Below, in pieces: positions 19,357-38,218 of a stretch of DNA of 64,000 nucleotides. The stretch is taken from assembly GCF_044324785.1 (NCBI RefSeq), contig NZ_CP172127.1; one strand, 5' to 3'. Source of the DNA: Escherichia coli. GTDB lineage: Bacteria > Pseudomonadota > Gammaproteobacteria > Enterobacterales > Enterobacteriaceae. Below the pieces are notes generated by a model. That model saw only the letters and a program-made list of their open reading frames with translations. It was not told where the DNA came from and did not search any database. The translations under genes were made by a program, and so were the position numbers. Every line of letters begins with the position of its first letter. Positions within the stretch are counted from its first letter, which is position 1.

Positions 19357-20093
19357 TGTTTTTTGGACTCCCTCATTATAATTACTGGTATTAACCAGCA
19401 TGTGTAATCCCGGATTGGGACCCTGCACAGGCTCGGAGACTTTCTGCTGTCAGGTTACTTTATCGTTACGGATTGCTATCACCGACTTTATTTATTCTGG
19501 TGATTCAGACGATCACCTTATGTCGATTCGTACTGTGTCTCCCCTGTCGAGACACATTATTCTTTCGCGACGCTCTTTAATTGTTAATTATTCTCATTAC
19601 CAATAAAGAATCGCCTGACGGTTGCCCGGAAAGTACCAAATGCGGTTCTTACTCGCCAATACATTTTGCAAAATTGTTAAGCAATTCTCTTTTATTGACC
19701 GTATCAGAATCTATAGCTTGTATCCATGACTTAACAAACATCTTTAAATTCAATCAAATAGAGATTGGTTAAGCATGTCTATCTTTTCTGATTACAGTTC
19801 CAGTAGTGAAATGCACAATAATTTAACAATTGATTATTATTTAGCACTTTCCTCTACCAAAGGCAGTGGAATTACTAATATCATTTCAATTATTCTTCAG
19901 CAAGCCCAGGATTATGATGTGGCGAAAATAACATGATGGTAAGGAGAAGCAGTTAAGGAAATCCTTATAACTACCTGTAATTTGAGAAGAATATTTTTAC
20001 CTATTCCTTTTGCTTTTGATAACTGCGCGGGAACAAAGTAAAAATAATGACGAAGTAAACGGAGCATGGCAGCTCCGTTTCATTTGAAAGGAA

Positions 20094-21217: not shown

Positions 21218-23893
21218 ATGGCTGTTACTAATGTCGCTGAACTTAACGCACTCGTAGAGCGTGTAAAAAAAGCCCAGCGTGAATATGCCAGTTTCACTCA
21301 AGAGCAAGTAGACAAAATCTTCCGCGCCGCCGCTCTGGCTGCTGCAGATGCTCGAATCCCACTCGCGAAAATGGCCGTTGCCGAATCCGGCATGGGTATC
21401 GTCGAAGATAAAGTGATCAAAAACCACTTTGCTTCTGAATATATCTACAACGCCTATAAAGATGAAAAAACCTGTGGTGTTCTGTCTGAAGACGACACTT
21501 TTGGTACCATCACTATCGCTGAACCAATCGGTATTATTTGCGGTATCGTTCCGACCACTAACCCGACTTCAACTGCTATCTTCAAATCGCTGATCAGTCT
21601 GAAGACCCGTAACGCCATTATCTTCTCCCCGCACCCGCGTGCAAAAGATGCCACCAACAAAGCGGCTGATATCGTTCTGCAGGCTGCTATCGCTGCCGGT
21701 GCTCCGAAAGATCTGATCGGCTGGATCGATCAACCTTCTGTTGAACTGTCTAACGCACTGATGCACCACCCAGACATCAACCTGATCCTCGCGACTGGTG
21801 GTCCGGGCATGGTTAAAGCCGCATACAGCTCCGGTAAACCAGCTATCGGTGTAGGCGCGGGTAACACTCCAGTTGTTATTGATGAAACTGCTGATATCAA
21901 ACGTGCAGTTGCATCTGTACTGATGTCCAAAACCTTCGACAACGGCGTAATCTGTGCTTCTGAACAGTCTGTTGTTGTTGTTGACTCTGTTTATGACGCA
22001 GTACGTGAACGTTTCGCAACCCACGGCGGCTATCTGTTGCAGGGTAAAGAGCTGAAAGCTGTTCAGGACGTTATCCTGAAAAACGGTGCGCTGAACGCGG
22101 CTATCGTTGGTCAGCCAGCCTATAAAATTGCTGAACTGGCAGGCTTCTCTGTACCAGAAAACACCAAGATTCTGATCGGTGAAGTGACCGTTGTTGATGA
22201 AAGCGAACCGTTCGCACATGAAAAACTGTCCCCAACTCTGGCAATGTACCGCGCTAAAGATTTCGAAGACGCGGTAGAAAAAGCAGAGAAACTGGTAGCT
22301 ATGGGCGGTATCGGTCATACCTCTTGCCTGTACACTGACCAGGATAACCAACCGGCTCGCGTTTCTTACTTCGGTCAGAAAATGAAAACGGCTCGTATCC
22401 TGATTAACACCCCGGCTTCGCAGGGTGGTATCGGTGACCTGTATAACTTCAAACTCGCACCTTCCCTGACTCTGGGTTGTGGTTCCTGGGGTGGTAACTC
22501 CATCTCTGAAAACGTTGGTCCGAAACACCTGATCAACAAGAAAACCGTTGCTAAGCGAGCTGAAAACATGTTGTGGCACAAACTTCCGAAATCTATCTAC
22601 TTCCGCCGTGGCTCCCTGCCAATCGCGCTGGATGAAGTGATTACTGATGGCCACAAACGTGCGCTCATCGTGACTGACCGCTTCCTGTTCAACAATGGTT
22701 ATGCTGATCAGATCACTTCCGTACTGAAAGCAGCAGGCGTTGAAACTGAAGTCTTCTTCGAAGTAGAAGCTGACCCGACCCTGAGCATCGTTCGTAAAGG
22801 TGCAGAACTGGCAAACTCCTTCAAACCAGACGTGATTATCGCGCTGGGTGGTGGTTCCCCGATGGACGCCGCGAAGATCATGTGGGTCATGTACGAACAT
22901 CCGGAAACTCACTTCGAAGAACTGGCGCTGCGCTTTATGGATATCCGTAAACGTATCTACAAGTTCCCGAAAATGGGCGTGAAAGCGAAAATGATCGCTG
23001 TCACCACCACTTCTGGTACAGGTTCTGAAGTCACTCCGTTTGCGGTTGTAACTGACGACGCTACTGGTCAGAAATATCCGCTGGCAGACTATGCGCTGAC
23101 CCCGGATATGGCGATTGTCGATGCCAACCTGGTTATGGACATGCCGAAGTCCCTGTGTGCTTTCGGTGGTCTGGACGCAGTAACTCACGCCATGGAAGCT
23201 TATGTTTCTGTACTGGCATCTGAGTTCTCTGATGGTCAGGCTCTGCAGGCGCTGAAACTGCTGAAAGAATATCTGCCAGCGTCCTACCACGAAGGATCTA
23301 AAAATCCGGTAGCGCGTGAACGTGTTCACAGTGCAGCAACTATCGCGGGTATCGCGTTTGCGAACGCCTTCCTGGGTGTATGTCACTCAATGGCGCACAA
23401 ACTGGGTTCCCAGTTCCATATTCCGCACGGTCTGGCAAACGCCCTGCTGATTTGTAACGTTATTCGCTACAACGCGAACGACAACCCGACCAAGCAGACT
23501 GCATTCAGCCAGTATGACCGTCCGCAGGCTCGCCGTCGTTATGCTGAAATTGCCGACCACCTGGGTCTGAGCGCACCGGGCGACCGTACTGCTGCTAAGA
23601 TCGAGAAACTGCTGGCATGGCTGGAAACGCTGAAGGCTGAACTGGGTATTCCGAAATCTATCCGTGAAGCTGGCGTTCAGGAAGCAGACTTCCTGGCGAA
23701 TGTGGATAAACTGTCTGAAGATGCATTCGATGACCAGTGCACCGGCGCTAACCCGCGTTACCCACTGATCTCCGAGCTGAAACAGATTCTGCTGGATACC
23801 TACTACGGTCGTGATTATGTAGAAGGTGAAACTGCAGCGAAAAAAGAAGCCGCTCCGGCTAAAGCTGAGAAAAAAGCGAAGAAATCCGCTTAA
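21218..23893 (+). CDS. adhE: Bifunctional aldehyde/alcohol dehydrogenase AdhE
   Basis: 891-aa [38 protein letters not shown]…; long 5' leader; recognised as AdhE. Confidence 0.97.
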
Positions 23894-23917
23894 TCAGTAG
23901 CGCTGTCTGGCAACATA

Positions 23918-23948
23918 AACGGTCCCTTCTGGGGCCGTTTTTTTGTTT
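23918..23948 (+). terminator. Rho-independent terminator after adhE
   Basis: Hairpin AACGGTCCC-ttct-GGGGCCGTT (one G-U pair) followed by TTTTTTGTTTT. Confidence 0.7.
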
Positions 23949-24195
23949 TACCCAAAGCAACTTTCCCATAAACCGACAGCATTTGCCTTCATCATATTTA
24001 CGGCGATGTATAACGCCTACACACAGCGATATTGTACTTTACAGGTCACAAGTCAACGTCACTGTAAAAGCGCTCTGTGAGGGGTATAGCGGCGTTAAAG
24101 AACTGTCGAGAAGGGTATATACACCGGATGAAGTGAGTAAAACGAACTGACAGGATAAAAGTGCCCTGCTCACCCTGTCAGTAAAGAAATTCTTA

Positions 24196-24813
24196 TTAAT
24201 CGTGGCGATGCCTTTCCTGAATAGCCGTTAATGAGCCGACTTCTAACGCTTCTTTATAGTGTTTACGGCATACAGAAACGTAGCGTTCATTACCACCAAT
24301 AACCACCTGCTCACCTTCGTTATAAGGTCTGCCTGCTTGATCAAGACGCAGCACCATGCTTGCTTTGCGGCCACAAAAACAGATGGTTTTTAATTCAACC
24401 AGTTTGTCGGACCATGCCAGTAAGTATTGGCTGCCAATAAATAATTCACCTCGAAAATCGGTACGTAAACCATAACAAAGTACGGGTATATCGAGTTGAT
24501 CGACAACCTCCGATAATTCATATACTTGTTGTCTGGTTAAAAACTGGCATTCATCAACCAGTACGCAATGAATTGCCTGCTGTTCATGTTCCGCACGAAT
24601 CTCATCAAATAATGATGAATTTTGGTTAAATAATTTTGCAGGCGATGACAAACCTATACGCGAACTGACTTTCCCGGCACCAAAGCGATCATCAATTTCT
24701 GCCGTATATACGACAGTGCGCATGCCGCGTTCCTGGTAATTGTATGAAGATTGCAACAATGCTGTAGACTTACCCGCATTCATTGCGGAATAGTAGAAAT
24801 ATAGCTGTGCCAT
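24196..24813 (-). CDS. tdk: Thymidine kinase
   Basis: 205-aa [33 protein letters not shown]… with P-loop; recognised as Tdk. Confidence 0.95.
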
Positions 24814-25854: not shown

Positions 25855-25881
25855 AAATCCCGCCATCGGCGGGATTTTTTA
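25855..25881 (+). terminator. Rho-independent terminator after hns
   Basis: AAATCCCGCC-atcg-GCGGGATTTTTT. Confidence 0.8.
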
Positions 25882-30716: not shown

Positions 30717-30801
<85 letters not shown>

Positions 30802-30856
30802 TCACTTTCAAAAGTCCGTGAACTCTCAAACGAATCCGCGATTAAATATTCTGCCC

Positions 30857-30943
30857 ATGCGGGGAAGGATGGGAAGCTTCGACCAAGGTGCGACTCGAGC
30901 GCCAGCGAGAAAGCGTTGCCGCAGGCAACGACCCGAAGGGTGA
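30857..30943 (+). CDS. tpr: Protamine-like small basic protein Tpr (29 aa), inside the tyrT 3' repeat unit
   Basis: ATG 30857 to TGA 30941 gives [28 protein letters not shown]; matches the tpr ORF of the tyrT operon as recalled; whether it is translated is uncertain. Confidence 0.45.
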
Positions 30944-30960
30944 AGCGCGCAGCGCTGAGT

Positions 30961-30985
30961 AATCCTTCCCCCACCACCATCACTT
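30961..30985 (+). repeat. Direct repeat of the tRNA-Tyr 3' end (25 bp, period 178 bp)
   Basis: AATCCTTCCCCCACCACCATCACTT occurs at 30783..30807 and again at 30961..30985, exactly 178 bp apart. Confidence 0.8.
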
Positions 30986-31117: not shown

Positions 31118-31142
31118 ATAAAAAACCCCGCCGAAGCGGGGT
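31118..31142 (-). terminator. Rho-independent terminator after narI (end of narGHJI)
   Basis: On the minus strand: CCCCGCTTCGGCGGGG followed by TTTTTTA. Confidence 0.75.
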
Positions 31143-38196: not shown

Positions 38197-38218
38197 AAGG
38201 ATAATCAAATATTAAGAT

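Follow-up and report, generated by a model that had tools for sequence, protein, structure and literature searches.

The stretch of DNA analysed here, referred to as the window throughout, comprises 64,000 nucleotides of Escherichia coli (contig NZ_CP172127.1). Within it, adhE and tdk face each other across a short intergenic spacer, and the features of this region, in window coordinates, are as follows.

21218–23893, plus strand: adhE coding sequence, 891 aa (open reading frame list; aligned to MG1655 adhE, b1241; RefSeq annotation of matching genomes)
23894–24195: adhE–tdk convergent intergenic spacer, 302 bp, with no insertion sequence (read from the sequence)
23917–23947, plus strand: predicted intrinsic terminator of adhE, AAACGGTCCC-TTCT-GGGGCCGTTT followed by a T-run, with the hairpin at 23917–23940
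23923–23934: unoccupied IS4-family target core, 12 bp, TCCCTTCTGGGG, the inner 10 bp of which (23924–23933) are CCCTTCTGGG (defined by the junctions in MG1655, NRG 857C, N41 and CS6L)
24139–24182, minus strand: predicted intrinsic terminator of tdk, CUGACAGGGUGAGCAGGGCACUUUUAUCCUGUCAG followed by UUCGUUU, with the hairpin at 24146–24182
24196–24813, minus strand: tdk coding sequence, 205 aa (open reading frame list; aligned to MG1655 tdk, b1238; tblastn match in outgroup species)

The names adhE and tdk are given by RefSeq annotation in 5423 of the 5426 complete E. coli genomes that match the stretch. Between the two terminators of the spacer lie about 190 bp that carry no annotation. A preliminary description of the window had reported a spacer of only 302 bp containing the adhE terminator; its coordinates proved exact, and the hairpin was recovered both by the terminator scan and by RNA folding. 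This hairpin begins 24 nt past the adhE stop codon and has ten base pairs, six of them G-C, a 4-nt loop and the tail TTTTGTTTTA, with a folding energy of -20.6 kcal/mol (z = -3.7). A GC-rich stem-loop, a U-run directly after it and a position downstream of the stop codon are the attributes of a rho-independent terminator, and the hairpin is predicted to terminate adhE transcription. It can also be read as a near-perfect palindrome lying between an A-run and a T-run, AAACGG-TCCC-TTCT-GGGG-CCGTTTTTTT. The tdk terminator folds with -20.8 kcal/mol (z = -3.9), and part of it is detected by the terminator scan. No RNA family was found in the spacer by Rfam at the gathering threshold, and a search for a small RNA or small gene between the two terminators gave a single promoter-like match, which falls within the tdk terminator. 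Compared with rho-independent terminators at other convergent gene ends, the adhE and tdk pair is of the usual type, with nothing unusual about it.

Occupied and empty forms of the adhE terminator

In MG1655, the tdk–adhE gap carries an annotated 'insertion sequence:ISZ' (1294426..1295405) and the pseudogene insZ (b4573), in agreement with the preliminary description, which mentions an IS-derived pseudogene between the two genes of that strain. Alignment gave an MG1655 spacer of 1301 bp, made up of 302 bp, 989 bp of element and 10 bp of duplication, and not the same 302-bp spacer, so that statement holds. Read in the orientation of the window, MG1655 runs …AAACGGC-CCCTTCTGGG / CAATGCCGATCAGTTAAG… (ISZ) …CTTAAGTGAACGGCATTG / CCCTTCTGGG-GCCGTATTTTTT…, the slashes marking the ends of the element. 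ISZ is 989 bp long and has imperfect 18-bp terminal inverted repeats, CAATGCCG(A/T)TCA(G/C)TTAAG, within a 10-bp direct repeat of CCCTTCTGGG. The same 10 bp occur twice in MG1655 and once in the window, where they form the top of the hairpin in the adhE terminator. At the site, the alignment with MG1655 overlaps by exactly 10 bp and that with strain N3 by 12 bp; the flanks are collinear with the occupied alleles up to the duplication, and zero element-derived bases remain in the window. Since CCCTTCTGGG is single in the window and paired around ISZ, the window presents a textbook empty site. It shares the chromosomal position of ISZ/insZ and holds the 10-bp flank of the element once, but is devoid of ISZ sequence, and thus represents an empty target rather than a member of the element family.

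The reading frame of insZ is broken; its conceptual product matches the Pfam families Nterm_IS4 (1.6e-10) and DDE_Tnp_1 (4.9e-8). Judged from the duplication, the ISZ feature annotated in MG1655 is 9 bp too short, the right inverted-repeat end ACGGCATTG (1294417–1294425) having been omitted; these bases complete the right inverted repeat and adjoin the 10-bp target duplication. The adhE terminator of MG1655 is split by ISZ, its 3′ half with the T-run now lying about 1 kb downstream. A terminator-like hairpin is located within ISZ, about 93 nt past the adhE stop codon, and this ISZ-internal hairpin may take over the predicted termination of adhE in K-12.

ISZ is not the only element located at this position. 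In the B2 strains NRG 857C and N41, the site holds an element of 1145 bp whose ends are those of IS4 (TAATGCC…), and the duplicated 12 bp are CCCCTTCTGGGG. The element corresponds to IS4 minus positions ~174–443 (about 270 internal bases) and is 96.8–98.3% identical to IS4. Strain CS6L carries an IS4 of 1428 bp that is inserted the other way round, with the duplication TCCCTTCTGGGG; the 12-bp version of the target is present twice in NRG 857C, N41 and CS6L alike. The similarity between ISZ and IS4 is limited to about 35 terminal bases. All three insertions share one dyad, between 23928 and 23929. They differ from one another in element type, in orientation and in duplication length, and therefore represent at least three independent insertions on one hairpin axis.

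Junction-specific searches of the 5426 complete E. coli genomes gave about 2196 with the empty allele as in the window, about 1933 with the ISZ allele, about 1138 with the B2-type junction of the internally deleted IS4 and about 190 with the CS6L-type junction of full-length IS4 in the opposite orientation; these counts total 5457, a few genomes being counted twice or carrying ISZ elsewhere. The empty form is the commonest single allele, at about 40% of complete genomes, and about 60% are occupied. Among the best 30 of the 190 CS6L-type junctions, all are 100% identical.

Over window positions 20000–44000, identity to the window stays below 99% in every complete RefSeq E. coli genome, and this points to an under-sampled E. 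coli lineage as the source of the window. None of the compared loci from other Escherichia genomes is the source, and a Shigella origin is unlikely, since the usual density of IS in Shigella would make 64 kb free of them improbable. The closest complete genome is that of strain N3, with identities of 99.2%, 99.86%, 98.2% and 99.4% across four consecutive segments, a variation that indicates a mosaic relationship. In N3, the adhE terminator is occupied by an IS4 whose transposase gene is intact; the strain further has a pair of tRNA-Tyr genes separated by 34 bp, a single RtT unit and two ldr units. Escherichia sp. MOD1-EC7003 is 96.2% identical to the window.

The polarity of the alleles was assessed by scanning species-representative genomes for the conserved 3′ end of adhE. 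Matches came from E. albertii, E. whittamii, Escherichia sp. MOD1-EC7003 and three Escherichia genomes about 90–92% identical to the window, together with Citrobacter, Salmonella (arizonae, diarizonae), Klebsiella and Pseudocitrobacter. Absent from this set, although matches would be expected there, were the E. coli species representative, E. fergusonii and S. enterica subsp. enterica. In all of the returned outgroups, the six non-coli Escherichia as well as the other genera, an uninterrupted terminator hairpin lies directly 3′ of adhE. A convergent tdk was confirmed in five of the six non-coli Escherichia and in the other genera, the E. whittamii locus extending only 56 nt past adhE, and the spacer measures about 300–326 bp in Escherichia and about 185–240 bp in the other genera. 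With E. whittamii and MOD1-EC7003 the window shares its stem variant, ACGGTCCC (the T variant); in the ISZ and B2 alleles the stem reads ACGGCCCC (the C variant). The uninterrupted outgroups and the shared stem variant argue that the empty site is the ancestral state and that MG1655 is derived.

Target preference of IS4

The occupation of a terminator hairpin agrees with the sites chosen by IS4 elsewhere. From 120 metagenome contigs with one IS4 end, 62 site clusters were obtained, the adhE site being excluded; the resulting target model describes flanks of one IS4 end only, in contigs of metagenomic origin. In the 62 flanks, positions -22 to -17 from the insertion point form an A-run, positions -14 to -9 are rich in C, and a G stands at both -4 and -1. 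When this half-site model is mirrored over a 12-bp duplication, an AAA…TTT palindrome is obtained. It agrees with the classical IS4 consensus AAA-N20-TTT, which is attributed to Klaer et al. in 1981 and Mayaux et al. in 1984. The commonest flank in the metagenome set, …GAAACGAAATAGGCATCTTGGTTCTG directly followed by IS4, was seen 20 times (contig L161 and 19 others), and its palindrome is weaker than that of other targets.

With this model, built without adhE sites, the adhE terminator scores 4.7 SD above the mean and takes third place among the ~64,000 window positions. The two higher-scoring sites, 25861–25873 (hns/galU) and 31128–31139 (downstream of RtT, next to narI), are terminators between convergent genes. 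Seven IS4 copies with both flanks available reconstruct to A-run/hairpin/T-run targets, with duplications of 11–12 bp and one of 14 bp. The adhE terminator resembles these IS4 (insG) targets in that it is likewise an A-run/palindrome/T-run sequence occupied by genuine or deleted IS4 with 12-bp duplications, but its A-run lies one base closer (AAA-N18-TTT) than the strongest positions of the IS4 model. The ISZ duplication, at 10 bp, is also shorter than the 11–13 bp typical for IS4.

A literature search found neither the AAA-N20-TTT consensus nor anything relevant on IS4 and attenuators; it returned nothing relevant on IS4 at adhE–tdk, and mention of insZ was confined to the IS census given as a table in the paper on the E. 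coli W genome. For elements of the IS4 subgroup, De Palmenaer et al. (2008; PMC2266710) have described a 'spectacular apparent insertion specificity' in their target arms.

Other differences between the window and MG1655

In reverse-complement orientation, the window corresponds to MG1655 1252592..1320537, with which it is about 97.8% identical and fully collinear. MG1655 is longer at five sites, which hold IS5U, ISZ, tyrV with RtT units, an ERIC-like element and two ldr/rdl units. DNA specific to the window amounts to only 4 bp at 38214–38217 and about 74 bp ending at 60129. Three of these sites, besides adhE–tdk, are marked in the window by the following features.

19841–19844: empty IS5 site, TTAG, between ychE and oppA (4-bp alignment overlap; MG1655 junctions)
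30717–30801, plus strand: single tRNA-Tyr gene (ARAGORN, Rfam)
30848–30979, plus strand: single RtT unit (ARAGORN, Rfam)
47111–47176, minus strand: rdl (Rfam rdlD, 91.8 bits), one half of a single type I toxin-antitoxin unit
47224–47331, plus strand: 35-aa ldr open reading frame, MTLAQFAVIFWHDLAAPILAGIITAAIVGWWRNRK, the other half of that unit

In MG1655, IS5U (1195 bp) lies upstream of oppA with TTAG on either side. A 127-bp element follows directly after the narK stop codon of MG1655 (1279350–1279476), inside the annotated small RNA narS (1279337–1279520), and is absent at window 38214–38217. Its core reads …CACCCCAGTCACTTACTTTAGTAAGCTCCTGGGATTCA…, and we take it to be a putative ERIC/IRU-like repeat. 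In the window, where the 127-bp element is absent, the narK 3′ region runs almost straight into the terminator. IS5U and this post-narK element are two longer sites of MG1655 that do not figure in the preliminary description. In the interval between ychF and ycgV, about 74 bp (60056–60129) are present in the window and missing from MG1655. A short CTG-containing microhomology at the ends of this segment suggests a deletion in the K-12 line.

When ISZ, IS4, IS5 and the ERIC-like element were compared with the window by BLAST, only chance matches of 15–24 nt were obtained (E<=1), and no CRISPR repeat family was found in the window by Rfam. The long open reading frames of the window all match the MG1655 housekeeping genes of the region, and the mobile elements of MG1655 in this 68-kb stretch are ISZ and IS5U only, both derived insertions. 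Judging from the collinearity with MG1655, the window holds no IS4-family element or remnant, prophage, integrase or CRISPR array, and the earlier claim that the 64 kb are free of transposase, integrase, phage gene and CRISPR array is borne out by this collinearity and by the lack of a BLAST match to ISZ, IS4 or IS5.

The claim of single-copy ldr and tRNA-Tyr was likewise confirmed by the open reading frames, Rfam and ARAGORN, which give one of each, compared with tyrT and tyrV and with ldrABC in MG1655. Loci and unit sequences are the same as those of the tandem tyrT–tyrV/RtT and ldr/rdl arrays of MG1655, but the window holds the minimum, one each. At the tRNA locus, MG1655 has tyrT, tyrV and more RtT units, and is 650 bp longer in all. 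A comparison with strains N3, NY1601, MEI4B-1023 and ECCNB20-2 revealed that the locus is highly variable in E. coli, with one or two tRNA-Tyr genes (spacers of 34 bp or about 209 bp) and one to five RtT units; the other Escherichia species compared have two tRNA-Tyr copies. Among 60 complete E. coli genomes sampled evenly, MEI4B-1023 was the only clear case of one tRNA-Tyr with one RtT, a frequency given by this 60-genome sample only, as the single-copy allele has no unique junction that could be counted. The single tRNA-Tyr state is rare and, on these comparisons, derived. The copy number of tyrT/tyrV shifts by unequal recombination. The window gene has the 5′ context of N3 copy 1 and the 3′ context of N3 copy 2, and would fit unequal recombination between two 85-bp genes and an assembler collapse of a 119-bp unit equally well. 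The ldrABC/rdlABC locus of MG1655 consists of three tandem units with 535-bp repeats, giving a three-fold match to the window unit; a single ldr at kdsA–chaA was found in about 15 of the 60 sampled genomes and is a common polymorphism.

Origin of the short spacer and its meaning

Taken together, the 302-bp spacer is very probably the ancestral, never-occupied form of the adhE–tdk convergent intergenic region. In the sequence of events that we propose, IS4-type transposases would select A-run/palindrome/T-run sequences such as that at the adhE terminator. By a symmetric capture of the target, as we infer, staggered cuts 10–12 bp apart about the hairpin axis would produce the 10–12-bp duplication. 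ISZ inserted in K-12-type lineages, where it is now a decayed relic of 989 bp; IS4 inserted in B2-type strains, with a later internal loss of about 270 bp; and full-length IS4 entered in the opposite orientation in others, including N3. The lineage of the window would never have been hit and so would retain a single target copy, with its terminator intact. IS5U and the ERIC-like element are K-12-lineage insertions unrelated to the spacer event, and the ldr and tRNA-Tyr/RtT differences are changes in tandem-repeat copy number, of the kind produced by unequal recombination.

Precise excision of an IS and a never-occupied site give identical sequences. It is therefore conceivable that the lineage once held ISZ or IS4 and regained the 302 bp when the element was precisely excised or when the duplications recombined. 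Each element is indeed surrounded by direct repeats of 10–12 bp, recombination between which would regenerate the window sequence exactly, and the closest complete genome, N3, has IS4 at the site. The empty state is nevertheless found in all outgroup species and in about 40% of E. coli genomes, and the window hairpin has the T variant of E. whittamii and MOD1-EC7003 instead of the C variant found beside ISZ and the B2 element. The intact transposase of the N3 IS4 and the identical junctions among the best 30 of 190 fit a recent gain in the N3 line, and excision across repeats of 10–12 bp is a rare event, all of which makes a lost insertion very improbable. An account by general genome streamlining or by an efficient defence against mobile DNA may appeal to the five sites at which the window lacks the IS, the ERIC-like element and the extra repeat units of MG1655. 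It strikes us as extremely unlikely, given that MG1655 itself has only two IS in the 68-kb stretch, both derived, that the window is longer than MG1655 by 74 bp at one site, and that the region holds only housekeeping genes in the annotated MG1655 and N3 genomes; a single 64-kb window is in any case uninformative on a whole genome.

The compactness might instead be an artefact of assembly, through collapsed repeats or an IS skipped by the assembler. The tRNA-Tyr locus lends itself to such an explanation, as the single gene joins a copy-1 5′ context to a copy-2 3′ context, which is exactly what collapse of the 119-bp unit gives, and as the single state was clear in so few of the sampled genomes; the ldr units are 535-bp tandem repeats as well. 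On the other hand, a complete genome, MEI4B-1023, has a single tRNA-Tyr and a single RtT, unequal recombination yields the same product as collapse, and a single ldr occurs in about one quarter of the sampled complete genomes. The adhE–tdk, IS5U and ERIC sites are clean single-copy targets matching many complete genomes, and an assembler is unable to drop an IS along with one of its target duplications. Assembly collapse cannot yield a clean empty IS site, and the adhE–tdk spacer is no sign of collapse. An artefact is improbable as an account of the compactness, and assembly collapse is possible only at the tRNA-Tyr and ldr tandem repeats.

The never-occupied reading also alters how the differences from MG1655 are to be described. 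The preliminary description held that the window is more compact than MG1655 at three repeat-prone sites. That the window is shorter is correct, but the number is not, as there are five shorter sites and one that is longer by 74 bp. Compaction is the wrong frame for adhE–tdk, which is an ancestral empty target, as in about 40% of genomes and all outgroups, and not a collapse-prone repeat. Nor do the sites share one history: they comprise two IS insertions in the K-12 lineage, one insertion of a small repeat element, an ldr polymorphism and a rare tRNA-Tyr state. The single tRNA-Tyr is the only feature deserving a check of assembly quality.

The window itself is an ordinary housekeeping stretch of chromosome and of low significance, and all elements of the finding are of kinds already known: a K-12 IS remnant, IS4 selectivity, intrinsic terminators and tandem-repeat variation. 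What it does bring out is that MG1655, with derived IS insertions at adhE–tdk and oppA, is not a neutral yardstick, and that the polarity of elements 'missing' by comparison with K-12 should be established from outgroups before compaction is called. The four alleles of the adhE terminator are usable as a presence/absence marker in population studies of E. coli. The terminator is also a clear natural example of IS4-type target selectivity and a potential defined target for transposition assays, and its recurrent use by three IS4-type insertions across the species is a mildly interesting by-product of the comparison. It is a tentative and rather doubtful extension that the adhE terminator could be a population-wide hot spot for IS4-type elements, whose transposases would generally select A-run/hairpin/T-run terminators between convergent genes. 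If this were true, the terminator-reading rule and the effect on adhE 3′ ends might be undescribed at such resolution, and insertion into such a 'safe haven' would spare coding sequence and yet replace the terminator of the host.
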